Assembly: GCA_003326205.1 (NCBI GenBank)
Contig: LWTK01000058.1
Span: forward strand, 2,476 to 66,475
DNA length: 64,000 nucleotides
Source of the DNA: Nostoc sp. ATCC 43529
GTDB lineage: Bacteria > Cyanobacteriota > Cyanobacteriia > Cyanobacteriales > Nostocaceae
Reading direction: 5' to 3'
Shown here one piece after another: positions 1,842 to 64,000 of the stretch. The notes beneath the pieces were generated by a model. That model was not told where the DNA came from, did not search any database, and was given only the letters and a program-made list of their open reading frames with translations. The translations under genes and the position numbers were made by a program. The stretch's first letter is position 1, and each line of letters begins with the position of its first letter.

Positions 1842-1972
1842 AGCCCTTTCAAAGTGACCAACGAAGATATGTGTTTCAGTGCTACCATCTTGAATCCTCT
1901 GCTCAGATTTTGCGCTTTTTGAAGGTTGAAATCACTAACCTTTGTTCCAAATTTCATCACCTTGAAAGGGCT
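1842..1972. repeat. ~130-bp MITE-like element with terminal inverted repeats
   Basis: AGCCCTTTCAAAGTGA (1842-1857) pairs with TCACCTTGAAAGGGCT (1957-1972) at 15/16 positions. The interior is non-coding. Confidence 0.55.
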
Positions 1973-2039
1973 GGTTTTCTACACTCATCAGCGCTATATG
2001 CTTGGTAAGTATTTTTATATACGCCATTGTTGGTTCATT

Positions 2040-2453
2040 TCACTCATCTAAATGTTCTGCCAAAGAGGAATATAAATTGATGATGTGATTGTCAGCCAAG
2101 CTGTAATAAACATTTTTACCTTCTCGACGATAACTGACTAAACGCATCGCTTTTAATAATCGCAATTGATGAGAAACAGCTGATTCCGTCATTTTCATCA
2201 ATGCAGCTAAATCACAAACACATAATTCTTGGGAGGCCAAAGCTGATATCAGCCGCAGACGATTCGGATCTCCAAGTATTCCAAAGACTTCTGCCATTTG
2301 TTTTGCCTTGTCTATAGACAAGATTTGTGTTTGAATTGACCGCACATTATCCAGATGCACCAAATGGGTATCACACTTTGGTACGCCTGCATTTTGAAGC
2401 AATACCAACTCTTCTTCGCTTTGGCGCTTGTTCATGGCATTAAGTATAGGCAA
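2040..2453 (-). CDS. aztR: SmtB/ArsR-family metal-sensing repressor (AztR/ZiaR/BxmR-like)
   Basis: N-terminal CDTHLVH, ELCVCDL helix, SHQLRLL HTH and C-terminal DNH...HLDE. It is divergent from the P1B ATPase. Confidence 0.85.
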   Translation of the reverse strand: MPILNAMNKRQSEEELVLLQNAGVPKCDTHLVHLDNVRSIQTQILSIDKAKQMAEVFGILGDPNRLRLISALASQELCVCDLAALMKMTESAVSHQLRLLKAMRLVSYRREGKNVYYSLADNHIINLYSSLAEHLDE

Positions 2454-2492
2454 TGGTTATCACTTTCAATTTTAACTAAAATTAAAGTATTG

Positions 2493-2518
2493 TACAGTTG
2501 AACATCTATTCAATTGTT
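2493..2518. promoter_or_regulatory. SmtB/AztR-type operator (TGAA-N6-TTCA core inverted repeat)
   Basis: TACAGTTGAACATCTATTCAATTGTT lies between the divergent repressor and ATPase and matches the known SmtB-family box architecture. Confidence 0.75.
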
Positions 2519-2564
2519 GTATTAGAATATTGGCAGTTAACTTTTTTGCCTTGGTTGTAATGCC

Positions 2565-26800: not shown

Positions 26801-29800
26801 TTTTGATACTTGTACTTCAACTGAGTTTTGATAAATTTGTGAAATTCCTGCAACTGTGGCATTAATACCTGATTGAATGTTAGTTATATTCTTTTCTGGT
26901 ACAGCTTTTGCAGGAATAATTAGTACTGGAGAATCTTCTTGATTAAGCTCTCTGGGACGGTTAGGTAGTGCTTGTAGAGCTTTTTTGTACTCACTATTTT
27001 CTGGAATTTGGTTTAATTCTAAACGACTACCTTCAGTCGCAATTTTTTGATTTAACTCTGCACTAAGCTGTTCATAGTGGTAAAATCCCTCAACTTCACC
27101 GATATTAATCGGTTCTCCAAGTAAACTATTTAATTCTTCGTTTATTTTTTCACTAATCTCATTTTTATTAAAAATAAATGTAGCTGTGTTACTCTCAATA
27201 AAATAATGATTTTCAGTAGATTTTGATTCTAGCCAAGTAGTTACAGCGATCGCGTCTTGTGCGGGAACAACTAATCCGAGAGCTTCTTTAGTTTCTATCT
27301 GCGATCCATCTGGAGAACTATATTGTTGGTTTGGGTTATAAAAATATACAGTTTGTTCTGGAATAATTGGAGTGGGTTGTGATGATGTATTTGCACTCTT
27401 GATATTACCACCAGCCCGGTCAATAAATGTTTGTTTTAATTCGCCACTCATGGTACTTTCATCGAGTACGAATACACTCATACCTTTTTTGGCTTCTAAC
27501 CGAGCTTGTGATCCGGTAAGCTGTTCGTATGATACTCCTACTTTTTCTAGATACTTTTTAGTTTTGTCGGCTATATTTTCGTCAACTGCTAATCCTAAAA
27601 GCCCTACTAATTTTTGTTCTTTATCTTGGAATATGATTGTAGGACGTTCATTAATTTTACCGAGTATTTGGTTACGTTTTTCTTGCTGTTCGTTTCTGAC
27701 AGACTTCTCATTACTGATAAGCTGACTGCGCTTAACCCATTTGTCGGGATACTCTACTGTTTCTGGATTAATAGTTATTTTACAGGTACTTTCATTACTG
27801 GTAATCTGTACAGGGATAGTAGTTCGTTGTTGGTTTAAGCGAATAATACCCGTATCAATTAGTTTTTGTACAGTGCTACTTTCTTTCCTTTGCCACTGTC
27901 TTTGTACATTCTCTCTATTTAACTCGGTTTCAAGGCGTTCACTATGCTGACCAATAATACCGAGTGATTGATCGCCAATTTTAGCAATATAAACGTGCTT
28001 TTTATCAAATGCCCGAACTAAAGTTTCTTTAAATGCTTGGTTGCTAATCTCCTGTTTTTTGTACTTTGGATTAGTAATATTAATTCGTAAAAAGTTTCCC
28101 TTAGATGTCTCTGCTATTGCATAGGCATTTTGTCCGGTGATGATGGTTTGAATTTTAAGCTGTAACTGTTGCCCATTACCGGGTTTTTCTGCTAGCCAAC
28201 CTTCAGCAATACCCTCTTTAATTGATTCCTTATCAATGTTGCCTAATTTCTCAGGTTTATTACCATTTTGAAGATAAATGCTATAGTCTTCCCGAATAAG
28301 GTCAACCTTTTCGATTGTTAACATTACAGGCTCATTATTGAACCTTTGGGAATTTCCAAACTTATTAACTTCACCTACTTTAAAGGTAAGTTCTGGAAGT
28401 CCGGGTACTTTGGTTGTAATAGAGGTGGTATATACTTCACCTTTTTCAACGCTGGCAATAGCAACACTACCAATTGGTAGTCTGGCGTTACTTTGTTCTA
28501 TATTTCCAAATGTTTCGTAATTACCTTCCTGGTTCTGGAGTTCAATGACACTTTTTCCATCTTCAGCTAGATTAAATCGAATATTTTGAGGTTTATTTTC
28601 ATGAAATAATTCACTACTCCTGTCGAAGCCAGTGATACTAAACTCGTTAAATCTGAGTGTGTCTAACTGACTGATAATCTCTTCAGAAAAGGCAGCAAAG
28701 GCGAAATTAGAAACTTTCTTTTGGTAATCGCTACTTTTATCACTACTACTCTCACGAGTAGTTGATACTGCCCAGGTAGCAGCTGCCATTGCTAGCTTTT
28801 GTCCTTCTGGAATTGAATTGTAAAATTCTTCTGCTATCTGGTAGGCTTTTTGGTAAAGAAGTTTAATTTGACCTTCGCTTAGTTCAGCTTGGAAGGCTAT
28901 TCTGTTAGACGTTACTTCCTGTCCAAGTCCAATTCCTATCTCTTCGGCTTTATTTTCTTGCTCCTTAGCAAGTGTTCCTAATGCCCTAAACTTGGGTTTG
29001 TTGTTCTCAGTTTCATCGTTAATTTGGGCATAAACTAGATATTTATGTGGGCGGTTACTGTTGCGCTTGTCTTCAGATATTTCTGATAGCTTGATTGTAA
29101 TTTTATTAGCTTTCCAGATAAATTCGTTGTCATACTGTAAAAGGTTAGTTACACTTACTTGATTGCCGTTAGCAAGGGTAATATTTGCAGACGGCCCTTT
29201 TTCAGTTTCTCTTTGTCTAGATAGCTGACTCGCTTGGTTAAAGGATTTGTCGAATTCTTTTTTGACAAGAGTAGCTATTAATCGCTGTTCGTTAGAAAAC
29301 TCGACACCTTTAAATAAAGCTTGAAATTGGGCGATTTCACGCGATTCGAGACGAGCTTTTTCAAAATACTGGTTGGTTTGAGCAATTAGTAATTCAACAG
29401 GCGAGTATCCCGTGGGTTGAATTGTATTGTCAATATAAACGTCTTTCTTCTTATCCTTAATATAGTTAACCTCCCGGTGGAGAATCCGATTGTTGTTGCG
29501 GATAATTTCCATTTCGGGTTTTTTGGCACTTTTGAAGAGGTCAACTGCAATTTGGTTTTGAAATGCTGCCTCGGCAATCATTTCGCGGTATATCTTGATG
29601 TTAGTATTCATTGCCACCAGTGCATTGACCTGGTTTAGGGATTCTTGCTGAACAGTTTTGATAAACTCTTCCATGTAACCGCGATACTTGGTCGGAATCT
29701 CCTTCCCTTCAATACCCTTGGATTTTGCCCAGGCTTCTGTTTTAAATAAATCTTCGTAGTGTTTGGCTACCTGCTGTACGTACTCAATTTGGTCTTTTTC

Positions 29801-47734: not shown

Positions 47735-48154
47735 CTAGAACGGAGGTTCTTGATCTAGGTCTTCATCTGTCGAAGTAACGTTATCTTCGAGTAGTTCTTT
47801 GGCAAAATCGGGAGTTTCAGGCGAGTGAGGGGTTTTACTAACCTGGGTGAGTTCGTTGATGGGTTGTGCTGACATAAAGTTTCTGATTACGAATGTGGCA
47901 ATCTTTTCTTTGTAATCACCCCTGTTATCAACTAGCAAATCGAGATATCCTTCTGCTGTGCCGTGTACGCCTTCCCCCTGTTCGTTAATAACGACGGCGG
48001 GTGCGCCCTTGGAACGGAATGGCATCTCGTCAGCAACTACTCCTTCCTTGGAACGGTAGTAGAATTCGGCGATCCCAAAGGCAATCAAGGAACCTTCTTT
48101 GTCGTGGGTAATGTTCACTGACTTAAGATTGATAGTTGCAGTATTATGAATCAT
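47735..48154 (-). CDS. Hypothetical protein, possible divergent SSB/OB-fold
   Basis: Beta-rich 139 aa ending DEDLDQEPPF, an SSB-like acidic tail; directly downstream of ssb. Confidence 0.5.
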   Translation of the reverse strand: MIHNTATINLKSVNITHDKEGSLIAFGIAEFYYRSKEGVVADEMPFRSKGAPAVVINEQGEGVHGTAEGYLDLLVDNRGDYKEKIATFVIRNFMSAQPINELTQVSKTPHSPETPDFAKELLEDNVTSTDEDLDQEPPF

Positions 48155-48226: not shown

Positions 48227-48610
48227 CTAAAAATTTGCGTTAGCTACAGTCTGTGTTTCGTTTGGTGCAGAAGTGGATGTAGATTCTTCCTTACGGGGTG
48301 AACCTAACAATTCAATAGCGTTGATTGTAATTACGGGTTTTTGCCGCATAGTGCCAGAATTTTTATCTGCCCAACGATCAAATCCAAACTCGCCAGTAAT
48401 TGCAATTTGGGTTCCTTTACGAACGTAATTTCCAATCACTTCTGCTTGATTTCCCCAGGCTACTAAATCAAACCAAAGGGCTTGTTCACTTCTGTAGGGT
48501 GGTCTGACTGCAATAGATATTGAAGCCTTAACTGCGCCAGACTCGAAATATTTGAGTTCTGGTTCTTGTCCGCATCTGCCAACCAGCATGACTTTGTTGA
48601 TATAGTTCAT
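48227..48610 (-). CDS. ssb: Single-stranded DNA-binding protein
   Basis: INKVMLVGRCGQEPELKYFESG, WFDLVAWG, YVRKGTQIAITG. Confidence 0.92.
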   Translation of the reverse strand: MNYINKVMLVGRCGQEPELKYFESGAVKASISIAVRPPYRSEQALWFDLVAWGNQAEVIGNYVRKGTQIAITGEFGFDRWADKNSGTMRQKPVITINAIELLGSPRKEESTSTSAPNETQTVANANF

Positions 48611-50766: not shown

Positions 50767-51441
50767 TTATGAGAACAGTGATAATTGCTCCATCTGAATA
50801 TTACTTTCAGTTGTAGTTGCTTTAACAGGGTGTTTGTTCTTATTCGACAACCTTTTACCCCAACCTTCTTTCACCGCGTGTTTGACTATACGGGAACGGA
50901 TATCAGCAGCTAGGGTTTCATAATCAGAGCGGATTTTGTCATACTGAATTGGGGTTGTACCAATTTTCTCCCACAGTTTATCGTATTTGAAATTCTCAAA
51001 AGGTCTGTGCCTTACCAGGGCATCATAACTTGCCCAGAGGTAAACATCCGTCCATTCAGATGAAAGCGGCACTTCAAAAGCAATTGGCATCATAAGTGCA
51101 ACAACTTCGCTACTAGAGGCGAGTTTACCTACTTTTCCCTTGTCTATCTCTTCTAGCGCTGCATCTAATCTATCGACTGCGATCGCTTTTCCTACCCAGG
51201 ATGGAATTGACTGTTGCCAGCCGTTTTGCTGAGTTACAATTGGCCCGACGATGTATTGAACAATTTCACGACTTGCTCCTGCTAGATCGAGTAGACTGGC
51301 TGTTACAGCTTTGTTAATCCCTTGGCTGGTTAGTAGCTGAAGCATCTTTCTAGTGCTAGGAGTAAGAATTTCGCTAGCTTTTTGGCTTTTGCTGTTACGG
51401 ATGCTTTCTTCGACATCGAATAAGCTTTGCTGCTGGTTCAT
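50767..51441 (-). CDS. Hypothetical protein with beta-clamp-binding-like motifs at both ends
   Basis: Starts MNQQQSLFD and ends EQLSLFS; lies downstream of holB on the same strand. Confidence 0.7.
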   Translation of the reverse strand: MNQQQSLFDVEESIRNSKSQKASEILTPSTRKMLQLLTSQGINKAVTASLLDLAGASREIVQYIVGPIVTQQNGWQQSIPSWVGKAIAVDRLDAALEEIDKGKVGKLASSSEVVALMMPIAFEVPLSSEWTDVYLWASYDALVRHRPFENFKYDKLWEKIGTTPIQYDKIRSDYETLAADIRSRIVKHAVKEGWGKRLSNKNKHPVKATTTESNIQMEQLSLFS

Positions 51442-51462
51442 ATTCTTTATGTGTAAATAAAT

Positions 51463-51494
51463 ACTGCCAGCTAGAAATAGTTCTAACTGGCAGT
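51463..51494. terminator. Stem-loop between holB and 50767..51441
   Basis: ACTGCCAGCTAGAA-atag-TTCTAACTGGCAGT, 13/14 paired. Confidence 0.5.
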
Positions 51495-51519
51495 GCTTTT
51501 TGATAATGGGTGTGTTTTG

Positions 51520-52368
51520 CTATGGCAGAAGTAGGTTATCCCAAACGCTTCTAGGAGTAACGTGATGCAGCAATTGCTTCCTTGCTTGAGTAAATTTAGC
51601 TAGCAATTGAGTGTTTTTTAATTTCTGCCACCAGTCGTGTTGCAGGTAGGTAAGCAGCCATAATTGTGTCTCATGATTCCAGCTTGAGATGGAGTTACTC
51701 AAACTGAGTGCGTTGAGAATATCGTCAGGAGGCACTTCCAGTTGACTTGTGATTTCTTTTGAGATGGAAGCTAACATTGTGATGTTGGCGATCGCTTGAC
51801 CAGGACTGCCTGAACTCATAGCTAGTATTTTTTCTGTTACCTCGATTTGTTGGTCTTTCAGAACAGAAATAACCTCCTCATCAGTTAACCTTTGGAAAGG
51901 TATGATTTGACACCTACTCTTGATAGTGGGTAATAGCTTTTGAGGATAGGACGAGATCAGGATAAATGTTCCAGTTTTCGGTTCTTCCAGCGTCTTGAGA
52001 AGTTTGTTGGCGGCGGTAGGGTTGAGCATATCTGCTTCGTGGATAATCACCACCTTTTGCTTGGCCTTGACTGCACTAGTTGAAAGAAATTCAATTACCT
52101 CGCGCACCTGTTCTACTCGAATAGCAGGTATACCTTTCTGCTGGGAGGTGTTTTCGGGATGGGTTGGTTTGATTTGTAAGATGTCTAGATGGTTATTTTC
52201 TCCTGCGATCTCAGTGGCGATCGCCAGAGCAGTTTTTCCTTTCCCCACTCCCTCAATTTGACTGCTAAATAGGTATGCAGGAGCAATTTTATTCTGTTCG
52301 ATTGCTTCAGTCAGGAGAAGTTTGGCGGTATGCTGTCCGGTGATTTCTGTAAATGGGTTGTTTTTCAT
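51520..52368 (-). CDS. holB: DNA polymerase III clamp loader delta' subunit
   Basis: IAPAYLF, GVGKGKTA, IRVEQVRE, AANKLLKTLEEP, LLPTIKSRCQ. Confidence 0.88.
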   Translation of the reverse strand: MKNNPFTEITGQHTAKLLLTEAIEQNKIAPAYLFSSQIEGVGKGKTALAIATEIAGENNHLDILQIKPTHPENTSQQKGIPAIRVEQVREVIEFLSTSAVKAKQKVVIIHEADMLNPTAANKLLKTLEEPKTGTFILISSYPQKLLPTIKSRCQIIPFQRLTDEEVISVLKDQQIEVTEKILAMSSGSPGQAIANITMLASISKEITSQLEVPPDDILNALSLSNSISSWNHETQLWLLTYLQHDWWQKLKNTQLLAKFTQARKQLLHHVTPRSVWDNLLLP

Positions 52369-53324
52369 ATCGTAGAAATTTCAGCAATTCGACTGGTTAG
52401 GTTGTCAACTCCGCTTTTGAGTTCGGCTTCGAGTTGTACAAGTAAAGTAAGGCTGTTTTTAAGCTTTTGAACGCCTACAAACTTGACTTCATCTTTGAGG
52501 TAATACAATCTTTTGGGATTTTTCAGTTCTGCTATTTCTACAATCTTAGTATCAGATAATTTAGTTTCTATCCCAGCTTTGGTTATTAACCAAGTGCGGA
52601 AAATAGAGGTAAGTGTTGCTACTATTTTGAGCGGATGTTCATTATTATCTAGTAGTTTAGATACTTGCAATATTGCTAAAATGGGATGGTTTCTTAACAT
52701 AGCAATGGTAAGCTTTATATAGTCAGTATTATGATTCCCAACGAGCTGTTTTACTTCCTCAATAGAGATTATTTTTCCACTTGTATAAACAGCAAGTTTA
52801 GCGAATTCGCTATTGGCTCGTGCAGCGTTATTCCCAATTGCTTCAGCTAGGTAATCAGTGACATCTGGTGTGAGTTTAACTTGATGGATGGCTGCATACT
52901 TTCCTATCAAGTTAACTATCCCCTTTTTATCCCAACTAGGGACGAGGGTAAACTCTTCTTGTTGGGCATATTTTAGGATAGTTTTTACTACTGTTCTGCG
53001 CGAATCTGGCTTTTTGTTACCAGTAATTAGAAGAATATTGCTTGACGGTATTCGGGAAAGTTGATTTTCAAGTTCTTGGTTATTATCTTCATTTGATAAG
53101 CTTCCAATTAGAGAGTCGCTGTCTGTATGAATAATTTTGTTACCTTCTCCAAAGGGCAAAGTCATAACCTCGGTAAAGACTTTGGTAGCAATATTTTTCT
53201 CATTTCCAGATAGCTTAACGTAATTGAAAGCTCTCCATTGTGCATGAACATTTTGATTCACTAAATAATCAATTCTTTGATTGAGTGAGTAGCTATCTTC
53301 GCCGTAGTATAGGTATACAGTCAT
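52365..53324 (-). CDS. holA: DNA polymerase III clamp loader delta subunit
   Basis: VYLYYGEDSY, MTLPFGEG, KKPDSR, SEFAKLAVY, EHPLKIVATL; 4-bp overlap with holB. Confidence 0.85.
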   Translation of the reverse strand: MTVYLYYGEDSYSLNQRIDYLVNQNVHAQWRAFNYVKLSGNEKNIATKVFTEVMTLPFGEGNKIIHTDSDSLIGSLSNEDNNQELENQLSRIPSSNILLITGNKKPDSRRTVVKTILKYAQQEEFTLVPSWDKKGIVNLIGKYAAIHQVKLTPDVTDYLAEAIGNNAARANSEFAKLAVYTSGKIISIEEVKQLVGNHNTDYIKLTIAMLRNHPILAILQVSKLLDNNEHPLKIVATLTSIFRTWLITKAGIETKLSDTKIVEIAELKNPKRLYYLKDEVKFVGVQKLKNSLTLLVQLEAELKSGVDNLTSRIAEISTI

Positions 53325-53468
53325 GATAGATTAGATAAACATTTATTTATCAGGCGTTAGTCGTAAGCGGTGGTTTAAAAAAAGAAGAGTTAGTGTTAAC
53401 TCTTTCTATATCCTTAGTGTTTGTTATATAGCCGCTAGCAAAATATAGCGATCAGCAAATCCTTACAC

Positions 53469-54251
53469 TTAATTTTGTATTGGCTGTACTGACTTATGAT
53501 TTGAGACTTTCTCAACAGTATTTTCTACTGGTTGAGTACCCAAATATTTCCGCCAATAATCCAATTGTTGGAGATACTCTACGACTCCACTAGAACCAGT
53601 TACCTCATATAGCGCAATAGCTGTTTCCCACTCCTTTAAGCTAGCTTTTTTCTTGGAAAGAATTTTGACTATAGCTCCTGGAAGTTTAGTCTCTTTACCA
53701 GTATCTAAATTTAGGTGTGATAACCTTTCTAGTAATAGTTCTTCTTCTGATAAAGGAACACCACCATCTTCGATGTTTATAGTATGAAGTTGGGCACTAA
53801 TTCCTGATAGAGGAAGAGTATGCTGAATTAATTTTTTAACTTTCTTGGTTTTAGTATTCCTCCTTTTTGCTTTAACGATAACTGGGTTGTTTGGGTCTGC
53901 AACTTCGTAACACTGGGGAAGTTCTAGAGAAAGTTGACCTGTTAAGTGCCATGATGCAGTTCGTTTTTCTGGCGGGGTGATCCGGTACGAGAACTCAGCT
54001 GTTTTTCTTGCATCGCCAAATTTCCTTAATTTGACCCGCATCTTGTAGCTGATAATTCCTTGAATGTAGGTTTTTGGGTCTAATATTACTGGGTTTGTAT
54101 TTTCCCACCACTCAATTTCAACAACGCGATCGCCATCTAATTCATAGATATTTCTAACTCTGGCATTAGGATGAGATGCAAGGAATGAGTTCACCCAAGC
54201 CCTTTGTTTTTTATTAAGCCTGGGCTTGCGATATGAGGATTTATTTTTCAT
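53469..54251 (-). CDS. Basic hypothetical protein
   Basis: 260-aa Lys/Arg-rich ORF inside the replication cluster. Confidence 0.6.
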   Translation of the reverse strand: MKNKSSYRKPRLNKKQRAWVNSFLASHPNARVRNIYELDGDRVVEIEWWENTNPVILDPKTYIQGIISYKMRVKLRKFGDARKTAEFSYRITPPEKRTASWHLTGQLSLELPQCYEVADPNNPVIVKAKRRNTKTKKVKKLIQHTLPLSGISAQLHTINIEDGGVPLSEEELLLERLSHLNLDTGKETKLPGAIVKILSKKKASLKEWETAIALYEVTGSSGVVEYLQQLDYWRKYLGTQPVENTVEKVSNHKSVQPIQN

Positions 54252-54523
54252 TAGTTACTTTTCCAATTTAAGAATGACATCTCCATTAATACATCAATAA
54301 ATTAACGAACTTAATCAGTTAATTAATGACTGATACTGTTTTTACTAATTTGACTTTTAGCGATAATTTTTTGTTTGTATGAAGGACTGAAAATAGTTTA
54401 ACGAAAGCCGATTTTCTTGTAGGTATTTGTCATTATTTACCAATTGTTGATAATTCATGAATTTAAAAAAAGACTTGATATTTATTATTTTCATTGGTTA
54501 CGTTAAATATCAAGTTTGTTCAT

Positions 54524-56356
54524 CTAGAAAAGGGATAACTGACGTTTATTACCTTCTAGTATTTCAGGAGCGGCTATTTTGAGGATTTCTTCTCGCCTTT
54601 TTTCGATTAGGTCAAGATAGTATTGACGTGAATAGCTCTCATTTGTGCTGATATTAGTAATACCTCTGATTCCGTAATAGTAAATTACTACATCACCAGG
54701 CTTTCCTAATTTAAGAAGTTCTTTTTCCCCAACACGAATTTTGCGAGTAATGCAGAGTTTTTCTATCGGGTATTTTCCTGATAAAATCTGCGATTTTACT
54801 TCTCTGAAATATTCCTCTGCCGTAGATTGGTTTTGGATTAAGTAGGTTAGATATTCAACAGGGAATTCTTTCTCTAGCCTTGAGCGAGAACGGTTTCTCC
54901 AACTACCTTTGGGGATAATTCTGTTATCTTTCAGCCATAACAGATAGTTCTTAGTTCCCCTTTGCGGAATAAACATTGCATTGGCAATAAACTCTAATTT
55001 GACGGTTATCCCTTTGGGTAATTGAGACTGAAGTGTGGCATATACTTTTTCTGGGTTTGGATGAGTAAAGAACACCCCGTCAGTATCAACTTCTACAGGG
55101 GTTGCACCAGCTTGATTGATTACCTCAATCATGAATTGTAGGATGCGCCGACCGTAAGCTGTTACTAAGGCGGCTGCTTCCATATCGTTGAAGGCGAGTT
55201 CCGATGTTCCGAAGAACCCAAACTGAGAATTAGCTAAAACTTTGGTGGATTCTCTTTTTTCCTTGGCAACAATGTCTCCGGTGCTGGCAATTTGTTCCAA
55301 CCTTGATTTCTCATTTACCAAATATTGCAAGATGCTCAAGCCGATTCGCTTTGTATCCTTACGAGAGACAATTCCTTTCGACAATATGGTTTTGGGGTAC
55401 ATAGAACTGATATCGATGTATCCAACCTTTTTATATAGTCCTGGAATAGAGTAGGCTATTCCCCCTTGGAATTTATACTTACGGTCGGGTTTGGGTTTGT
55501 ATCCTGGATAGTGATGCGAGAATATTTGCTTCCACTTGGTGCCGTTACCAGCGAGGGCTAACTGCTGGAGGTTCATTCCCGGTACAACCAGTGCTTCATA
55601 GTGGTATGAGGGTACAAGTCTGTTAGCTATGAATTGCGTATCTTCCAAGTCGTAAATAAGATAATCCTTGATTTTCTGCCATCTCCTACTACCAGAACCG
55701 GCTTTCCAGCAGGCGAGAATTTCTTCATAGGGGAGAACCAGTCGCGCTTGCTTACGCAATCCCATTTCCAGTACCACCTGTTTAAGCGATCGCCCGTTAG
55801 TAAGTTCCTTGGCGACAAAATCCCACCTGAGAACGCAGATAAAGATATCTACGTGCAGGCAGTTGCGGATGAATACCTCCCGAATTTCCAGTGGTTCGCC
55901 GCGTACTTGGGCAGTTCGGATAGTGCGCTTCTTAGATGCAATTCTAAATGGATGAGGAATGCCGTGTAACTCGCAGCGGGTGATGAGAAACGGTAGGTCA
56001 AATTCTGTTCCATTGTAGGTGTAAATTACTTCTGGTTTGCTTGCTTCTATGTGTTTGAAAAACTCCAGGAGGATTTTGCTTTCGGCTTGATCCATAAAAA
56101 TGGCAATCTCTCCTATCTCCCTCATACAGCCAATTGCATAGATACGATTTTCTCTTGGATTTATCCCTGCCGTCTCAATATCGACTACCAGAGTTTTGAG
56201 CGTTCCGTAGGTCGGAATATTTACTGTGGGGTGCCACTCAGGTATTGGGGTAGTATCTGACCAGAATATGTCGAGTCTTTCCTCATCAACGATAATCTTA
56301 TTACCAGATTTGCTAATAAAATCTCGGTGGTTGTAATTCATAATCTCCAAAATCAA
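54524..56356 (-). CDS. Family-B DNA polymerase with 3'-5' exonuclease and a C-terminal beta-clamp motif
   Basis: Exo I VDIETAG, Exo II YNGTEFDLPFL, Exo III YLIYDLEDT; Pol motifs DISSMYP, KVLANSQFG, VDTDG; ends RQLSLF*. Confidence 0.88.
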   Translation of the reverse strand: MILEIMNYNHRDFISKSGNKIIVDEERLDIFWSDTTPIPEWHPTVNIPTYGTLKTLVVDIETAGINPRENRIYAIGCMREIGEIAIFMDQAESKILLEFFKHIEASKPEVIYTYNGTEFDLPFLITRCELHGIPHPFRIASKKRTIRTAQVRGEPLEIREVFIRNCLHVDIFICVLRWDFVAKELTNGRSLKQVVLEMGLRKQARLVLPYEEILACWKAGSGSRRWQKIKDYLIYDLEDTQFIANRLVPSYHYEALVVPGMNLQQLALAGNGTKWKQIFSHHYPGYKPKPDRKYKFQGGIAYSIPGLYKKVGYIDISSMYPKTILSKGIVSRKDTKRIGLSILQYLVNEKSRLEQIASTGDIVAKEKRESTKVLANSQFGFFGTSELAFNDMEAAALVTAYGRRILQFMIEVINQAGATPVEVDTDGVFFTHPNPEKVYATLQSQLPKGITVKLEFIANAMFIPQRGTKNYLLWLKDNRIIPKGSWRNRSRSRLEKEFPVEYLTYLIQNQSTAEEYFREVKSQILSGKYPIEKLCITRKIRVGEKELLKLGKPGDVVIYYYGIRGITNISTNESYSRQYYLDLIEKRREEILKIAAPEILEGNKRQLSLF

Positions 56357-56376
56357 TTATTGTTTTTTGGCATAAA

Positions 56377-56517
56377 TCAGCATTTTTTACCTTTGATAAT
56401 GCATGATTCGCCAAAACATTTGGAGCATCGCGGTAATTCATCAATATACGTATCGAAATCTGCGATCGCTGCTGGTAATTCAAGTCCTGTACGAAGGCTA
56501 ATTGCTGCAACTGGCAT
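56377..56517 (-). CDS. Possible 46-aa Cys-rich microprotein, not in the ORF track
   Basis: MPVAAISLRTGLELPAAIADFDTYIDELPRCSKCFGESCIIKGKKC*, ending just upstream of polB. Confidence 0.3.
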   Translation of the reverse strand: MPVAAISLRTGLELPAAIADFDTYIDELPRCSKCFGESCIIKGKKC

Positions 56518-56764
56518 AATTTTAATCGGATACTTCTAAAATGCCAGTTGTTAAATTTTGTTGTGGTATTACTTGATATCTTAATTTTTTGCTTCCCAGT
56601 CAGGATAGTCTTTATTAATATTGAGGCTTACTGCACAAGGTAGATATTGCTGTAGATGAAAGTGTATTATATTTAATGTAGTTTTTGAATAAGCCTGAAA
56701 AAATCTTTCCCCAAAGTTTTTATTGGGGAAAGTAAGTGCTTTTACAAAGTGACGAACATTTGAA

Positions 56765-58126
56765 TTAGGCAGTTTGTAATTGAGACTTCATCTGAAGCTC
56801 TTGTACCAGTTGTACCCACGCAGGTGCTTTTTTACCTTTAATGGGAGTAACATTGTTCCAATGCCTTTCGAGTTCAGATTGAGATAAATGTGGGAGTTGT
56901 TCTTTACCCCAATTGATAGCATCTTGGATTGTTTTCCAATTAGTCCAAGGTTGTTTTTCTTCTTTGATATTGGTTAACTCAATGAGTGTCGCTTCCAACC
57001 AAAGTTTAGCTGCCTCCGAGTCACGCATTAACTGTTGTCTTGACATTAACAGGGCAATACTTGCCTGAATCTGGGTTAGTTCCCACATCTGAGAAATAGT
57101 AACGAGTTCCTGCCAAGTGTCTTCCTCCAGTTGAGTAATTTGTCTATTATCAGGAGCAGTTTTAGCCACTAGCAGGTCTTTGAGAAACCCAGTTAAACTT
57201 GAGTATATGACGAATGGGTTTTTGCCATACTCAATTAAGTCTTGGAGGATTTGTAAGTTAGTTGTTACGTCTCCTTTAGCAAGGTTTTCTGTTAGGGTAA
57301 GTAGGTCATGTTCGGGAACGACACCTGATAATTCCCAAACCCAATTTGGTGTGATTTCATCTACTCCCAGGTTGCTCAATTGATCGAGCAATACAAGACA
57401 GTTGCGAATAAAACCTCCACAAGACTTGACGATCGCCCAAATACCAGGTGCGTTAATGTTGATGTTTTCATTCTGGGCAACTTTTGATAAATACTGAACA
57501 AGTGTTTCTAGTCCTACTCTCCTAAAATCAAACTTTTGACAGCGCGAGATGATAGTTTCAGGAACCTTGTGTATTTCAGTTGTGCAGAAGATGAAAACTA
57601 CATGACGGGGTGGATTTTCAATTGTCTTGAGGAGTGCTTGCCACGATTGACTGCTCAGGGCATGACATTCATCAATAATGAAAATTTTGTATCTTCCCTC
57701 AACTGCTGCAAACTGGGTAGTGGAAATTAACTCGCGGATTGTTTCTACCCCGCTATTGCTGGCAGCATCTAACTCAGTTACATCCAGTGAAGAAGAGGCT
57801 GTAATTCCCTTGCATGAATTGCATTCTCCGCAGGGCTTGGTTGTTGGCTCATCGGTTAACTGACAGTTAAGGGATTTAGCCATGATGCGGGCGGTGCTAG
57901 TCTTGCCTGTGCCTTTGGGGCCGTTAAATAGGTAGGCGGGTGCAATCTTCTGGAGTGCGATCGCCGTCCCTTGCGCGTCTCCTTTAGGAGAAGGCGGGCG
58001 TTTAGCGATCGCGGAGTCACTCCCTACTGGGAGTATCGCATTTATGAGAGTGCGGACGATATGTTCTTGCCCGATTACTTCACTAAGGGTCTGGGGACGG
58101 TATTTGAGATGTAGTGGTTGGTACAT
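56765..58126 (-). CDS. dnaX: DNA polymerase III gamma/tau clamp-loader ATPase
   Basis: LKYRPQTL, GPKGTGKTS, the PCGECNSC zinc module, ELDAASN, IIDECH, ETIISRCQ. Confidence 0.92.
   Translation of the reverse strand: MYQPLHLKYRPQTLSEVIGQEHIVRTLINAILPVGSDSAIAKRPPSPKGDAQGTAIALQKIAPAYLFNGPKGTGKTSTARIMAKSLNCQLTDEPTTKPCGECNSCKGITASSSLDVTELDAASNSGVETIRELISTTQFAAVEGRYKIFIIDECHALSSQSWQALLKTIENPPRHVVFIFCTTEIHKVPETIISRCQKFDFRRVGLETLVQYLSKVAQNENININAPGIWAIVKSCGGFIRNCLVLLDQLSNLGVDEITPNWVWELSGVVPEHDLLTLTENLAKGDVTTNLQILQDLIEYGKNPFVIYSSLTGFLKDLLVAKTAPDNRQITQLEEDTWQELVTISQMWELTQIQASIALLMSRQQLMRDSEAAKLWLEATLIELTNIKEEKQPWTNWKTIQDAINWGKEQLPHLSQSELERHWNNVTPIKGKKAPAWVQLVQELQMKSQLQTA
57957..58039. repeat. 75-bp in-frame insertion at a HIP1 site inside dnaX
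   Basis: NAI-[LPVGSDSAIAKRPPSPKGDAQGTAI]-ALQK. Two GCGATCGC copies plus a split ATCGC; internal hairpins ACTCCC..GGGAGT and TCTCCT..AGGAGA. Confidence 0.75.
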
Positions 58127-58192
58127 AATTTCGATGATAAACGAGTGTTTTATTTACTTCCTACCAGTGTGGTTGGTAGGAAGTTTGATTTT

Positions 58193-59569
58193 TTAGGCAG
58201 TCGCCGCTTCTTTTTTCGTTCGTGGCGATCGTGAGGTTGACTTCCCTTTGTTAGTATCTTTCGCTACTACCGTTGGCGTTTCTATTTGAGGAGTTTCACT
58301 ATCGTCTGTTGCCTGTGCCACATTTGCTACTTCTTCAGTACTAGACTCAGTTTGAGTGCTAACTTCTGTTACTTCTTCAGTACCAGGCTCACTTTGAGTG
58401 CTGACTTTCGCCTTTGTACTTTGGCTATTTACCTTTCCAAACCCCTGCTTGATTTCCACAGGCATTACCAGATACAACTGATTGAGCAGCCCTCCCATCG
58501 GGCAGACAATGACTGGTTGCGTGGGTTTGTTGCACCGCACCACGATTTCATCGGTACTGATATGCTTTAATCCTTCGATAAGGTAGTCGATGTTTAATCC
58601 AATACTGATGTTTTCTGAATTACTAGTTACCGATTTCATCAGTACCGAGTCAACTGCATCCCCAATATCAGTAGCTTCGGTGTATAGTGTTGCTTGTGTA
58701 GCTTCCAATTCCCAGAGGATTTTGACAACCTTTTGCTTGCGTTCGGCTAGATAACTTACCCGCTTCAGCGCGCTCTCAAATCCCTTGCGCTCTAATGTAA
58801 ATTCATACTCAAACGACCGGGGAATCAAGCTATTGATTTTGGGATATTCTCCCTCCAGAAGCCGGGAAATGAGCTTTGTATTGGGAAGGCTAAACTCGAT
58901 AGTTCTATCTGATAGAAGAATATTGCACACGCTCGTATCGGCGCTTTGAGAGAGAATTTTGTTTAACTCGCCAAGTGACTTACCTGGAACGGTGAAGTCG
59001 ATTGGGTCAGAATATTCGCTATCGAGTGTTCCTGTTACTAGCGCTAATTTGTGACTATTTGTACTAGCAGCTTGCCACTTGTTGGTATCAATTTTGAAGT
59101 TGACACCAGTTAAAACCAACTTTGTTTCGTCGCTGCTGGCGCAATAGAGCGTCCCTTCAAGTGCAGCTTGGAGTTTCTTGGCACTTAAGTTTATCTCTGT
59201 TGGATTTTCTGCCTTTGGAAGTGTTGGGAACTCGTCAGATTTTCCGCCAATTAGTCGGCACTTACCGCTATTGTGAGTAATTATGCAGGCTTGATTTTCT
59301 ACTTCTAGGGTAATTTCGCCTTTAACATTACTAACAGTATCAGTTAGTAGTTTGGCAGGGAGTGCTACCTGACCTGAAATTTCGACATTAGCGGTGGTTG
59401 TAGTGTGAATTGTGAGGTTAAGGTTTGTACCTGTTGCTGATACTATCCCGTCTTCATCTGCAATCAGTAAGATATTTCCTAAAATTGGGTCAGTGGGTTT
59501 AGGACTGATTGCGAGGTAAGCAGTTTCTAGAATTTCTGCGAGTTTAGATTGTTCAATGGTTAGTTTCAT
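58193..59569 (-). CDS. dnaN: DNA polymerase III beta sliding clamp with a long C-terminal tail
   Basis: SATGTNL, ASTNSHKLA, SRLLEGEYP, IGLNIDYL, YLVMPV; then ~85 low-complexity residues. Confidence 0.92.
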   Translation of the reverse strand: MKLTIEQSKLAEILETAYLAISPKPTDPILGNILLIADEDGIVSATGTNLNLTIHTTTTANVEISGQVALPAKLLTDTVSNVKGEITLEVENQACIITHNSGKCRLIGGKSDEFPTLPKAENPTEINLSAKKLQAALEGTLYCASSDETKLVLTGVNFKIDTNKWQAASTNSHKLALVTGTLDSEYSDPIDFTVPGKSLGELNKILSQSADTSVCNILLSDRTIEFSLPNTKLISRLLEGEYPKINSLIPRSFEYEFTLERKGFESALKRVSYLAERKQKVVKILWELEATQATLYTEATDIGDAVDSVLMKSVTSNSENISIGLNIDYLIEGLKHISTDEIVVRCNKPTQPVIVCPMGGLLNQLYLVMPVEIKQGFGKVNSQSTKAKVSTQSEPGTEEVTEVSTQTESSTEEVANVAQATDDSETPQIETPTVVAKDTNKGKSTSRSPRTKKEAATA

Positions 59570-59649
59570 TTGTTACTTGGTTTTTAGTGGATGATTTCTT
59601 AACGGGCGCTATTTATAGCACCCTTTTTGCTTAGATGAGGTAGTTTGTT

Positions 59650-60642
59650 TTAGTAAGGCAGTTGTTCCATCTCAGTACTGTATGCTGTATAATCATGACC
59701 TCCTGTACTAGGAGGAAGTGCTGCTATTGGCATATCGGCTGCACCTATGAGGCGGTTATGTTCTGCTACAACGGTTGATGTTTTACCGATGCGGTGAGAG
59801 AATTCGGGATTTGCCTGCATCGTTGTTTGGATATGGATTTCTTTGGACTCTGAGAAGAATTCTAGAAAATCGCTTCCATCCGGGTTTGGTGATTTGTAAG
59901 AAGTGACAACTGCTACCCAAGATTTATCTCTTTGGTTAACTGCTTCTTTCGGTTCAAGGGATGGTGTGAAGGTAGGTTGAAATGCACCAAGGCGATGAAA
60001 CTCTGCACGTTTTTCAGCGACAGTTGTATCAGTAAATCGGGCGAATGCAACCTCTAGTTCGCGTTGGAACTGTTTGTAAGCCTCGCCAAATTTTGATGAT
60101 GCAACGCCTTTGATTGACAAGACAATTGGTACTGAGTGCAGGTTGTTATTATTTTCATCGACAAGTTGCAACAAGTAGAATCGTCTCAATACTGCGGCAT
60201 CTTTGCCGAGTGCTTGGTACATTTCGTACCCATCAGGTGATTCGTACACTCCCACAATTTTGCCATCATCGCGCTGTTCAATATATCTGGGAGAAATATC
60301 AAGAATGTGCATTCTGGGCGATTGCAACAACACTCCCATTTCTGGCGTACCACTGGAGAAGGTGTGCTTGTGTGTAGGTTCTTGTCCTTGCCAGTTAATT
60401 CCTGCTAAATACTTATCTTTTATAAACAACCCAACTTTTTCTGCTTCCATGTGGTTGATGACTTGGCAGATGCAGATATTGCTAATCGGCGCATTGTACT
60501 CAGGATTTGCAAATTTAGAAATAGCTGATTTACGCTTTTGTATGTTTGCCCCATTCTGAACGGTTTGTTGAGGAGGTTCTAACTCGGACGCTGCGCTTTC
60601 TTCAATAGCAGAATTAGTAGGCTTTGTTTGATTTCTTGCCAT
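59650..60642 (-). CDS. DUF5895-like hypothetical protein
   Basis: GVLLQSPRM, RRFYLLQLVDENN..LH..PIVLSIKG, FQPTF motifs recalled from this cyanobacterial family. Confidence 0.55.
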   Translation of the reverse strand: MARNQTKPTNSAIEESAASELEPPQQTVQNGANIQKRKSAISKFANPEYNAPISNICICQVINHMEAEKVGLFIKDKYLAGINWQGQEPTHKHTFSSGTPEMGVLLQSPRMHILDISPRYIEQRDDGKIVGVYESPDGYEMYQALGKDAAVLRRFYLLQLVDENNNNLHSVPIVLSIKGVASSKFGEAYKQFQRELEVAFARFTDTTVAEKRAEFHRLGAFQPTFTPSLEPKEAVNQRDKSWVAVVTSYKSPNPDGSDFLEFFSESKEIHIQTTMQANPEFSHRIGKTSTVVAEHNRLIGAADMPIAALPPSTGGHDYTAYSTEMEQLPY

Positions 60643-60773
60643 AATTTTAATTAATTGAAATCAATCTTTAATGCGTCAAGCAAAAAGCCGTTGTAAAAAA
60701 TAAAAGTCGTCTGTTATAAAGACGACTTGAAAGATTTATTAATTTTTCACTATTTAGATACAGTTTTCATCAT

Positions 60774-61121
60774 TTAAACTTTAGAACCTTTAATCGAGAA
60801 AACCTCGCAATCGCTTGTGGAGGTAAACCCTCTCGCAGTGCTGTTCTCAATGCACTCTTTCTTGAATTCGGTAAAGTTGTTCATGTAAGTGTCTTCCTGA
60901 ATAATTCCAGTTTTGGTGTTTAAAAGTGTCTGATAGATTTGCTGAAGATTGATGATGATTTGTTTAAGAACAGATGTATTTTCAGTTGTGAAAGTCAGTG
61001 ACACAGATGTTGTGCTTGAATTGTGAATTGCAACTGTTTGTTCTTCAGGTGCGCCATAAGTTGTTATGTGACTATCTTTACCAGGAATAAATCTGTAGGA
61101 AGCAATAGTTTCAATTGCCAT
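60774..61121 (-). CDS. Hypothetical protein
   Basis: 115-aa ORF in the minus-strand run. Confidence 0.5.
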   Translation of the reverse strand: MAIETIASYRFIPGKDSHITTYGAPEEQTVAIHNSSTTSVSLTFTTENTSVLKQIIINLQQIYQTLLNTKTGIIQEDTYMNNFTEFKKECIENSTARGFTSTSDCEVFSIKGSKV

Positions 61122-61123
61122 AT

Positions 61124-61342
61124 TTATCTCCTTGTTCGTTGGGGTTTAATTTCAAGCATTTTATTAGTAAGTTTGGTGACATTACTGACTTTCCAACCAG
61201 CAAGCTTACACTTAGTAACTGCTAGTTCTAATTCTTGCTGTGTAAGGATTTTGTATCTCGCATAGTTTCCGAATTTAGGGAAAATGTACGTGACATACCT
61301 AGTTTCATCAATTTGGCAGTACGCCATACGTTTGTGGTACAC
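61124..61342 (-). CDS. Hypothetical protein
   Basis: 72 aa; its start overlaps the stop of the methyltransferase. Confidence 0.55.
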   Translation of the reverse strand: MYHKRMAYCQIDETRYVTYIFPKFGNYARYKILTQQELELAVTKCKLAGWKVSNVTKLTNKMLEIKPQRTRR

Positions 61343-62394
61343 TATGGTTTAATTATTTTGATGATTCTGGTGGCTACATTTGTAGGGTTATTTGAACTCA
61401 AAAAGGCATCTTTATCTACCAACTCGACATAGCTCTTATTGCTCTGTAGCCACTCTTTGAAGCTTTGATACTTCCGGTTGAAGAAAACCGATTCAGGGAC
61501 GACTGAAACTAATACACCACCTGATATAATTAACTTCCAAGCTTGATAGATATGTTCGACAAGTTCGCAAAATGGAGGATTCATGATACAGGCATTGTAT
61601 AAATGACTGGGGTTAAACTCCAGAAAGTTTTTCCCTACGAGATTAAATCCTTTGAGTTCTAGAATTTGTCGTAGGTTGTAATTCACTTCAACTACCTCTA
61701 GTTGGACATTGGAGTAGGTTTTAGTGATATATTCAGCAATATTTCCGCTACCAGCGCTCGGCTCTAAAATTCGCCAATTTGGTTCAATATCTGCCAGTTG
61801 AATAAGCCGTTGACAGACTGGTTTGGGAGTAGGAAAGAAATCTCCAGATTTCATGCCAATGATTTCTAACTCAAGCTTATTAAGTTGTTGCTTGGTAGTA
61901 TCAATTGCTTCAGGTTTTACTATCTGTTGAATTTCTGTTATTGCTGATATGATTTCGCCTGATGTATTTAACCCGGCGCGACTGAGAGATTTTACCCAGT
62001 CTTGGTAATATTCGCCTTCTAGTATTTCTTGGACTTTCTGGCTAATTTCTCCACTTTGAGAAATCCTAAATAGCACTTCCACCTGTGATTTACGAGATAT
62101 ACCGCGTAGTATTGGTGGGATATTTCCTATTTCCCACATTTGTGCGATCGCAAATAACCAAGACTGGATAATCTCAAGTTCAATTCCTTCTTGGATTATC
62201 CCTTGAGCTATAGTTTTACGGCGCTTGGTTGCCCTTTGATTCCCAATAGTAGGATTTTTCTTTTGGTCAATTCTTGACTGCATTGAGGCAGCTAGTTTGC
62301 GGAGAGCTTCTGCTTTTTCTAAGTTAGGAATATTGAAAATATCTAGTGATGAGTTATCCTCGTTGTAGGACAGATTTAGTAGAGATAGTTGCAT
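61342..62394 (-). CDS. Class I SAM-dependent (N6-adenine-type) DNA methyltransferase
   Basis: DFFPTP, ILEPSAGSGNIA (motif I), CIMNPPF (motif IV); starts MQLSLL. Confidence 0.8.
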   Translation of the reverse strand: MQLSLLNLSYNEDNSSLDIFNIPNLEKAEALRKLAASMQSRIDQKKNPTIGNQRATKRRKTIAQGIIQEGIELEIIQSWLFAIAQMWEIGNIPPILRGISRKSQVEVLFRISQSGEISQKVQEILEGEYYQDWVKSLSRAGLNTSGEIISAITEIQQIVKPEAIDTTKQQLNKLELEIIGMKSGDFFPTPKPVCQRLIQLADIEPNWRILEPSAGSGNIAEYITKTYSNVQLEVVEVNYNLRQILELKGFNLVGKNFLEFNPSHLYNACIMNPPFCELVEHIYQAWKLIISGGVLVSVVPESVFFNRKYQSFKEWLQSNKSYVELVDKDAFLSSNNPTNVATRIIKIIKP

Positions 62395-63446: not shown

Positions 63447-64000
63447 CTACGGCATATAGTATTTTTTCAGATTGTCGATACTTGTGTATAAACTTCGGGT
63501 TGACATTGCTTTGAGGTCAAAATAACTGACAAACTTTTTCAACCCTCCCGTAAGGGTTAATTCTAGTAAGTACTGGGCTGCGATCGCACTCGTCATTTTA
63601 TTGACAAATAGCGACTGATAATTTCGTGCTTGAATTTCTGCACATGAGAGGTTATTGTCTGTGATCTCTTCCAGTTGAGGAACTAACAATTCCGGGTGAA
63701 CCAGCGCCGGAGAGGGAAGATGCAACCAGAATTTAGGTTTGTCTGGGTTATTGGCAGCTTGAACTATATCAAAATTAGAGTGCGTTCCAACTACTACTTG
63801 GCCGGAGTGGTTGCTGTTTCCACAATCCAGCCAAAATAGCGATGCTGGCTCATTTGCACTGTTCAGTTTGAGAACTGAGTGAATTTTGCTCCTGGCGGCG
63901 CTGTTATCCACACAACCAATAATTACTGTTAGGGTGTTCCATGAATTGGTGGTGTGAATCATATCTTCTTCAAACCAGTCGCAAATGGCTGTAATCTCAA
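63447..64000 (-). CDS. ThiF/E1-like adenylyltransferase (PRTRC-type), 5' part outside the window
   Basis: IIGCVDNSAAR, WLDCGN..SGQV, LPSP..HPELL, SCAE, QSLFVN. The frame stays open to the window edge (EITAICDWFEED-MIHT). Confidence 0.82.
   Translation of the reverse strand, partial: EITAICDWFEEDMIHTTNSWNTLTVIIGCVDNSAARSKIHSVLKLNSANEPASLFWLDCGNSNHSGQVVVGTHSNFDIVQAANNPDKPKFWLHLPSPALVHPELLVPQLEEITDNNLSCAEIQARNYQSLFVNKMTSAIAAQYLLELTLTGGLKKFVSYFDLKAMSTRSLYTSIDNLKKYYMP

Follow-up and report, generated by a model that had tools for sequence, protein, structure and literature searches.

The DNA analysed here, referred to throughout as the window, comprises 64,000 nucleotides (nt) of Nostoc sp. ATCC 43529 (assembly GCA_003326205.1, contig LWTK01000058.1, positions 2,476 to 66,475 of the forward strand). 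It includes a plasmid replication module in which three proteins, namely a family B DNA polymerase (PolB), a methyltransferase-like protein and a 224-amino-acid (aa) protein named p224, carry terminal peptides predicted to bind the beta sliding clamp. The section from 47.7 to 63.4 kb was 96% identical to plasmid pC052_E of Nostoc sp. C052, and over about 70% of its length it also matched, at 88% identity, a family of large plasmids of Nostocales. This family includes pCC7120beta of the model strain Nostoc PCC 7120, where the same genes are present, and 11 of the 12 matching records were typed as conjugative. The pCC7120beta orthologue of the methyltransferase is WP_044520234 and that of p224 is WP_010993904. 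By these matches, the window belongs to a large conjugative plasmid of Nostocales, of the pCC7120beta/pC052_E type. The module is compact and lies on the minus strand, with genes for a single-stranded DNA-binding protein (SSB), p224, the clamp-loader subunits delta-prime and delta, a 260-aa protein (p260), PolB, DnaX, the clamp DnaN, a DUF5895 protein and the methyltransferase-like protein. Genes for ParA, ParB and an actin-like partition protein are found just upstream. The three proteins with terminal peptides, and the peptides themselves, are the following:

54524..56341, minus strand: PolB, family B DNA polymerase; Pfam DNA_pol_B_exo1, RNase_H_2 and DNA_pol_B
54527..54541, minus strand: predicted clamp-binding motif QLSLF of PolB, its last five residues (...NKRQLSLF, then stop)
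50767..51441, minus strand: p224, a 224-aa protein of an undescribed family; predicted all-alpha core (residues 7-191) and disordered tail (192-224)
50773..50787, minus strand: predicted C-terminal motif QLSLF of p224, residues 219-223, followed by one Ser (...MEQLSLFS, then stop)
51418..51432, minus strand: predicted N-terminal motif QQSLF of p224, residues 4-8; the protein begins MNQQQSLFDVEE
61342..62394, minus strand: S-adenosylmethionine (SAM)-dependent methyltransferase-like protein, 350 aa; motif I EPSAGSG, motif IV NPPF
62377..62391, minus strand: predicted motif QLSLL of the methyltransferase-like protein, residues 2-6 (start MQLSLLNLS)

Clamp-binding-type peptides at protein termini

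The 129 open reading frames (ORFs) of at least 60 aa in the window were scanned for clamp-binding-type peptides, positions within the first 12 or last 8 residues being counted as terminal. The pattern Q[LMVIQHF][STDGN]L[FL] gave four matches, all of them terminal and all in PolB, p224 and the methyltransferase-like protein. A six-frame translation of all 64 kb contained just two copies of the exact pentapeptide QLSLF, each at the C-terminus of a gene product (PolB and p224). In 2000 within-protein residue shuffles the mean number of terminal matches was 0.094 and the maximum 2, compared to the four observed, and a chance origin of the four motifs is excluded. A DNA-level repeat was also ruled out as their source, since the four sites use different codons and the motifs are therefore peptide-level features rather than copies of one DNA element. 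No other terminal pentamer- or hexamer-type motif, nor any motif at an alternative start, was found elsewhere in the window, and motif scans of its first 44 kb gave no terminal clamp-binding-like peptides. The four peptides named by the first-pass annotation, which was made from the sequence of the window alone (QLSLF in PolB, QQSLF and QLSLF in p224, MQLSLL in the methyltransferase), were all present where it had placed them, on the minus strand.

The published consensus of beta-clamp-binding peptides is QL(S/D)LF, with Leu tolerated at the last position and variation at positions 2 and 3 (PMC11139829). PolB QLSLF, the C-terminal QLSLF of p224 and methyltransferase QLSLL match it, and the N-terminal QQSLF of p224 deviates at position 2. 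Homologues of all three proteins conserve the motif amid varying flanks. Counts of motif-bearing members in each family, compared with shuffled expectations, gave a 50- to 180-fold enrichment for the three main motifs and an enrichment of about 19-fold for the N-terminus of p224. Conservation among orthologues, on which the first-pass annotation had made its proposal depend, thus turned out to be strong for PolB, for the methyltransferase and for both ends of p224, and the terminal QLSLF-type peptides are well supported as predicted beta-clamp-binding motifs.

The plasmid family B polymerase

Counted from the ATG of the RefSeq annotation, PolB has 605 aa; a TTG at 56356 opens the longest ORF. 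It matched Pfam DNA_pol_B_exo1 (1.6e-12) and DNA_pol_B (4.1e-8) above their cut-offs, the alignment contains an invariant DTDG, and the annotations of its homologues read 3'-5' exonuclease or DNA polymerase. The closest relatives are PolBs of cyanobacterial plasmids and cyanophages, and a kinship of this kind between PolB and cyanophage polymerases was noted earlier in a purely phylogenetic context (PMC4916379). The C-terminal ending QL[ST]LF persists to about 40% identity, and the approximately ten residues that precede it vary. The motif was found in 54 of 81 long homologues, where 0.3 were expected; the cyanophage relatives are devoid of it. As far as alignment can tell, the variable linker supports a disordered placement of the motif.

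Although a member of family B, PolB scores far below the cut-off of the NCBIfam Pol II equivalog and is therefore not orthologous to E. coli Pol II. It nevertheless resembles Pol II in combining 3'-5' exonuclease and polymerase domains of the B family with a pentapeptide motif at the extreme C-terminus; QLGLF of Pol II is among the listed C-terminal clamp-binding motifs (PMC11139829). A further likeness is that Pol II works with a bacterial-type clamp and clamp loader, such as are encoded beside the plasmid PolB. The plasmid enzyme differs in being shorter, plasmid-borne and part of a dedicated clamp/clamp-loader operon, and, unlike Pol II, it is possibly the main replicase of the plasmid rather than a repair enzyme. 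Its C-terminal QLSLF would make it processive on the clamp, as QLGLF does for Pol II.

The methyltransferase-like protein

RefSeq names for this protein are SAM-dependent DNA methyltransferase or type I restriction-modification subunit M. Its C-terminal domain matched PHROG 'DNA methyltransferase' families of phages and plasmids (1e-52 to 1e-6); the match is to the methyltransferase modules of very long phage and plasmid proteins, whose PHROG profiles have 1400-3400 positions. Some homologues match PF02384 (N6_Mtase), and no close solved structure or PDB match of note was found for the protein. Its substrate is likely to be DNA. The enzyme appears to be an orphan, as none of its immediate neighbours carries a nuclease-like annotation.

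All plasmid orthologues begin MQLSLL, and orthologues of 62-63% identity begin MQLSLF and then continue with divergent residues. A subfamily of about 350 aa, which includes proteins of Gloeothece and of a gammaproteobacterial metagenome-assembled genome (MAG), keeps an M(x0-5)QLS[LI]F(D) N-terminus down to about 34% identity, in forms such as MQLSLF and QLSIFD. Among the 70 members of 330-375 aa, 51 carry the motif, versus 0.7 expected, and the variable residues beside it support, from alignments, a disordered N-terminus.

The start of the methyltransferase gene overlaps, in another frame, the last 41 nt (13 codons) of an upstream gene encoding a 116-aa protein, p116 (62354-62394, minus strand). 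Across orthologues, substitutions in the overlap leave the methyltransferase residues unchanged (synonymous) but alter those of p116 (non-synonymous), and the tail of p116 varies in length and sequence, apparently as dictated by the conserved MQLSL[LF] codons. Because the substitutions are synonymous only in the methyltransferase frame and the p116 tail changes length, selection acts on the MQLSL[LF] peptide. The sequence AAGGA is located 8-12 nt upstream of the methyltransferase ATG. For the 313-aa database forms, which begin at Met38, a start-site miscall is the simplest explanation.

In plasmid backbones, motif-bearing relatives of the methyltransferase adjoin ParAB, Prim-Pol and ArdC anti-restriction genes, and one homologue has an ArdC-N match (PF08401). 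The plasmid enzyme shares its catalytic domain, the ArdC neighbourhood and the setting of plasmid establishment with ArdC-associated orphan methyltransferases and polyvalent anti-restriction proteins. It differs from them in being a stand-alone protein of 350 aa and is distinguished by its N-terminal clamp-binding-type peptide; full-text literature searches found no description of a clamp-binding tag on enzymes of these groups.

The p224 family

The p224 family, which comprises 296 representative clusters, had no match in Pfam, PHROGs, NCBIfam or PDB sequences. In 14 orthologues with identities down to 61%, residues E218-L222 (EQLSL) are invariant and F223 is replaced by Leu in one, whereas the approximately 20 residues preceding the motif vary freely. 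At the other end of the protein Q4, S6, L7 and F8 are invariant in the same orthologues. Among 58 distant members, Q219 is conserved in at least 90%. Out of 148 representatives of the family, 58 carry the C-terminal motif (0.66 expected) and 20 the N-terminal one (1.0 expected).

An AlphaFold2 model built from a diverse alignment of 58 sequences reached a mean predicted local distance difference test score (pLDDT) of 91 and a predicted template-modelling score (pTM) of 0.84; a model from a shallow alignment of 14 sequences reached a pLDDT of 43. In the former, residues 192-224 are predicted to form a tail with no secondary structure (pLDDT 55-61), which would leave a tether of about 27 residues before the C-terminal motif. 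Foldseek searches of the model against PDB and BFVD gave no similar fold (best E-value about 1, TM-score about 0.17).

In plasmids of the pCC7120beta/pC052_E type, p224 closes the clamp-loader operon as its final gene. It stands directly after or near the delta-prime gene in pCC7120beta-type plasmids and in a PolA-type variant cluster (L087), and in other cyanobacterial plasmids it heads a trio composed of p224, a short methyltransferase and PolA. One member (L083) is flanked by ArdC, ParB, Toprim primase and type IV secretion system (T4SS) genes in a conjugative element of non-cyanobacterial appearance. In the window, a perfect 14-bp hairpin (51463-51494, minus strand; -22 kcal/mol, z = -7.5) separates delta-prime from p224 and has a U-rich stretch after it. 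This hairpin is terminator- or attenuator-like, and p224 may therefore be expressed at a level different from that of the clamp loader. An in-frame QLELF (51475-51489) upstream of the p224 start was considered as a third motif of the protein and rejected, as it has no preceding start codon and is encoded by the hairpin.

Among clamp-bound proteins, Hda has its motif, QLSLPL, in a disordered N-terminus (PMC11139829). It offers a precedent for the N-terminal motifs of p224, of the methyltransferase and of the delta-prime subunits of related plasmids, and its QLSLPL likewise for a QxTLPL sequence in p260, both described below. Hda is an AAA+ protein, whereas p224 is predicted to be all-alpha, has no AAA+ signature and has no detectable relatives among known folds. 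Owing to this orphan fold and to the lack of an AAA+ or any other Pfam match, p224 was not filed with the Hda-type clamp-bound regulators.

Candidate partners in p260 and in related clusters

The product of the gene that follows the polymerase, p260, had no match in Pfam, PHROG, NCBIfam or PDB; orthologues are found in the related clusters L001-L036 and L087. It contains two internal candidate motifs:

53469..54251, minus strand: p260, 260-aa protein whose gene follows the polymerase gene in PolB-type and PolA-type clusters
53919..53936, minus strand: internal hexamer-like motif QLSLEL of p260, residues 106-111, candidate only; fits QLxLxL, the hexamer form of the clamp-binding consensus
53808..53825, minus strand: second internal motif QHTLPL of p260, residues 143-148, candidate only; resembles QLSLPL of Hda

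The form GQL[SA][LI]x[LI] of the first motif is conserved in 11 orthologues down to 30% identity. The second, as Q-x-[TKN]-L-P-L, is conserved in ten of these 11 and follows a variable basic linker that separates the two.

The delta-prime subunit of the window has no terminal motif, and 'NPFTEITGQ' near its N-terminus was discarded as a candidate, being the RPxxFxxxxGQ box canonical for DnaX-family ATPases. By contrast, the delta-prime proteins of clusters L027, L029, L030, L032, L037, L045 and L087 carry an N-terminal extension of about 40 residues that begins MKQLDLL, MNQLNLL or MNNQLSLL. In the first six of these clusters p224 is absent within the 10 kb flanks, and L087 is the PolA-type cluster with p224. 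Peptides of the same type were present on further proteins of related plasmids. A TGT/DpdA-like protein beside the Goleter cluster (L027, 17945-18973) ends in RQISLF, and TGT-like proteins fused to DUF6884 in pCC7120beta (L097, 3007-4425) and pC052_E (L099, 1507-2925) end in QLVLNI or QLVLDI, the hexamer form that E. coli Pol IV uses. TGT-like genes are not present within the 64-kb window. Besides the methyltransferase, a TGT/DpdA-like protein could be another clamp-docked enzyme that modifies DNA. In Anabaena-type clusters a 155-aa protein ends in NQLTLF.

Cluster L087 (Scytonema hofmannii PCC 7110, contig KQ976355.1, 848-8678) is a variant of the module in which a family A polymerase of 697 aa, with ...YQFSLML at its N-terminus, replaces PolB. 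This cluster retains p260, delta, a delta-prime with N-terminal QLSLL, and p224, which indicates that the polymerase is exchangeable while the tagged accessories stay. From comparison of these clusters, it is well supported that the predicted docking network is wider than first seen, extending in relatives to delta-prime and TGT-like enzymes and possibly to p260.

The plasmid clamp and competing explanations

A complete set of clamp and clamp-loader genes accompanies the three tagged proteins, with DnaN, DnaX, HolA and HolB all scoring above Pfam cut-offs:

58193..59569, minus strand: plasmid beta sliding clamp DnaN, 458 aa; Pfam DNA_pol3_beta, beta_2 and beta_3
56765..58126, minus strand: DnaX (gamma/tau) clamp-loader ATPase; Pfam DNA_pol3_delta2, AAA and DNA_pol3_gamma3
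52365..53324, minus strand: clamp-loader delta (HolA); Pfam DNA_pol3_delta and delta_C
51520..52368, minus strand: clamp-loader delta-prime; Pfam DNA_pol3_delta2

DnaN consists of three clamp domains, residues 1-370 of which align to solved clamps, and a tail of about 85 aa. Its segments TNSHKLAL, YPKINSLIP and LVMP resemble those of the Bacillus subtilis clamp; in solved clamps these segments line the peptide cleft, and the plasmid clamp has kept them.

Taken with the conserved motifs, this setting makes it probable, in our judgement, that the module encodes a plasmid replisome whose partners PolB, the methyltransferase and p224 dock on DNA-loaded clamps by a common terminal tag. Several observations weigh against it. 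The N-terminal QxSLF of p224 lacks Leu at position 2 and is found in a minority of the family; moreover, it abuts a predicted helix (residues 7-25), which makes it less certain as a free peptide. The motifs of p260 are internal, and the hexamer pattern was not enriched in the window (five matches versus 3.8 expected), so that it was discarded as statistical support and p260 is kept as a candidate on its conservation. As to the methyltransferase-like protein, its only Pfam match was MTS, at 16.1 bits under a cut-off of 23, and no curated Pfam or NCBIfam DNA-methyltransferase model scored above threshold. The NPPF motif also occurs in some RNA and protein methyltransferases. Finally, short-form methyltransferases of related plasmids (L027, L090) have no motif of their own, from which it follows that clamp docking would be a feature of the subfamily of about 350 aa and not of the enzyme type.

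The strongest competing explanation accepts that the motifs bind a clamp but assigns them to capture of, or competition for, the host chromosomal clamp. The plasmid could borrow parts of the host replisome at establishment, or p224 could act as a bivalent clamp blocker or regulator in the manner of SocB-like proteins, of phage clamp inhibitors or of Hda-like control of initiation. Since the motif is the generic bacterial consensus, the host clamp may well be bound too, and the presence of two motifs in p224 would suit a blocker. Likewise, no clamp gene is visible in the contig of the conjugative element that carries p224 member L083, or in view of the motif-bearing methyltransferase relatives near ParAB, ArdC or Prim-Pol; however, these contigs are short and a clamp gene may lie beyond them. 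Further evidence points to the plasmid's own clamp. In addition to p224 ending the clamp-loader operon in this plasmid type, tblastn searches of the 23 PLSDB plasmids with a p224-family gene detected dnaN on at least 21, versus 452 of 72,556 plasmids overall, a co-occurrence that favours the plasmid clamp as target and is confounded by shared ancestry. On the strength of this count, the idea that p224-bearing plasmids have no clamp of their own, which would have implied the host clamp as target, was dropped. On balance, we regard the host-clamp explanation as unlikely.

A far less probable explanation is that the terminal peptides are a tag for some other plasmid-specific hub, such as a clamp-loader subunit, the DUF5895 protein or a T4SS coupling or export factor. 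The conserved tips of other neighbours (...PPF or ...IPF in the 139-aa protein p139, ...[ED]LPY in the DUF5895 protein) do indicate that terminal peptide codes are used in the module. The QLSLF-type peptides nevertheless match the beta-clamp consensus exactly, the motif of PolB occupies the same position as in E. coli Pol II, and the motif is conserved in homologues outside the plasmid family, where the putative hubs are not evident. Least credible of all is that the resemblance arose by coincidence or from miscalled start codons or ORFs, the true methyltransferase start being, for example, Met38 and MQLSLL never being made: entries that begin at the internal Met and the overlap of the first 13 codons with the upstream gene speak for it, but the shuffle statistics, the family-wide enrichment, the AAGGA element, the conservation of ATG, frame and motif against a changing p116 tail, and the improvement of the motif to QLSLF or QLSIFD in distant homologues all speak against it.

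Probable docking of PolB, the methyltransferase and p224 on a beta clamp, more likely that of the plasmid than that of the host, is the reading that we retain, and the shared network proposed by the first-pass annotation emerges well supported by conserved, consensus-matching motifs, as far as sequences alone can support it, and extends to other partners in relatives.

Other features of the clamp, the module and its surroundings

A search of PLSDB showed that plasmid-borne dnaN is common on large cyanobacterial plasmids and falls into several divergent lineages. Oscillatoria nigro-viridis PCC 7112 has dnaN on three different plasmids, and some plasmid DnaN proteins have N-terminal extensions, such as the 484-aa DnaN encoded beside dnaX and holA on pNPM2 of Nostoc N6. 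In the DnaN of the window, the C-terminal extension of about 85 residues (approximately residues 371-458; 58193-58459, minus strand) follows immediately on LVMP, the strand by which the peptide cleft is closed. It comprises a variable acidic Ser/Thr-rich stretch followed by a conserved basic tip, ...SRSPRTKKEAATA, which in relatives reads ...KPRGRKKKVAAA and is AT-hook-like. Nearly all plasmid orthologues have this extension; that of cluster L034 is without it.

The remaining members of the module in the window are:

48227..48610, minus strand: plasmid SSB; Pfam SSB, NCBIfam ssb
59650..60642, minus strand: DUF5895 protein

SSB ends in ...ANANF, and this ending is conserved. Its neighbour p139 (47735-48154, minus strand) has an acidic stretch and ends in ...EPPF, or in relatives in ...IPF or ...DIPF. 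An acidic stretch with a ...PPF tip is normally part of SSB itself, and the function of the SSB tail may be split here between the two proteins. At its C-terminus the DUF5895 protein bears the conserved tip [ED]-L-P-Y, which is NPPY in one relative and is replaced in Oscillatoria and N. edaphicum plasmids by a long poly-acidic tail; the tip may be another terminal docking peptide of the module. Genes for DUF5895 proteins lie near a p224-family gene in three plasmid types.

According to the annotation of pC052_E, the module is followed by genes for a ThiF-like E1, a JAB/MPN peptidase and a prokaryotic E2, that is, a ubiquitin-like conjugation operon (in the window 63447-63962, minus strand, and beyond). 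The ThiF-like E1/JAB/E2 set also accompanies Anabaena-type clusters (L030). Elsewhere in the window, an ORF of 2624 aa is located at 23840-31714 on the minus strand.

Proposed clamp docking and replication-coupled methylation

Recruitment to the clamp by short peptides is textbook knowledge. In the mechanism proposed here, QLSLF-type short linear peptides would insert into the hydrophobic cleft of the DNA-loaded clamp dimer. The N-terminal MQLSLL would hold the orphan methyltransferase on clamps left behind on newly made DNA, where the enzyme could modify nascent plasmid DNA during its synthesis, including synthesis of the complementary strand after conjugative entry. Such methylation would shield the plasmid against the restriction systems that are frequent in Nostocales. 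Multiple restriction activities limit conjugation in these cyanobacteria, and protective methylation coupled to replication would therefore be of clear selective advantage, above all while the complementary strand is synthesised after transfer. As to p224, it may be an accessory protein docked on the clamp through the C-terminal motif carried by its flexible tether of about 27 residues. The geometry that we infer would further allow the second, N-terminal motif to let one p224 molecule occupy both clefts of a clamp dimer.

The closest functional analogue of the proposed clamp-docked plasmid methyltransferase is the eukaryotic pair of Dnmt1 and PCNA, in which a clamp-binding peptide in the methyltransferase's N-terminal region leads to methylation of newly replicated DNA (PMC9690074). 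The two enzymes are not homologous: Dnmt1 is a C5-cytosine methyltransferase that uses PCNA and a PCNA-interacting peptide (PIP) box, whereas the plasmid enzyme is amino-methyltransferase-like, with NPPF, and would use beta and a QLSLF-type motif predicted from its sequence.

Full-text literature searches returned no case of a bacterial methyltransferase interacting with the clamp, nor any account of clamp-binding motifs on conjugative-plasmid proteins of this type, and a 2024 review devoted to the partners of the beta clamp (PMC11139829) does not contain the word 'methyl'. The principle is known; what appears to be new is the set of partners (an orphan methyltransferase subfamily, TGT-like enzymes, p224 and p260) and the setting of a plasmid PolB/beta/DnaX replisome.

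Conserved clamp-binding-type peptides on a polymerase, a methyltransferase-like enzyme and p224 suggest that DNA methylation is tied to replication in these plasmids. With more reserve, and as a proposal about which we have some doubt, bacterial mobile elements in general may couple anti-restriction DNA-modifying enzymes (the methyltransferase of about 350 aa and TGT/DpdA-like proteins) to the replisome, with p224 as a new bivalent clamp-binding family. If so, plasmid DNA, whether incoming or nascent, would receive its modification during synthesis, in a bacterial counterpart of Dnmt1-PCNA; a widespread orphan methyltransferase subfamily of about 350 aa, found in cyanobacterial plasmids and in at least one gammaproteobacterial MAG, would ride the beta clamp by means of an N-terminal QLS[LI]F tag, as would TGT/DpdA-like enzymes by means of a C-terminal QISLF or QLVLDI; and p224 would do so with a fold unrecognised among known folds. 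Should the tag work as predicted, it would reveal the way in which a conjugative plasmid whose host is rich in restriction systems matches its protective methylation in time to DNA synthesis. Maintenance methylation coupled to replication would thereby gain a bacterial parallel, and the clamp interactome would be enlarged by two uncharacterised families, p224 and p260, and by the plasmid PolB/beta/DnaX replisome.

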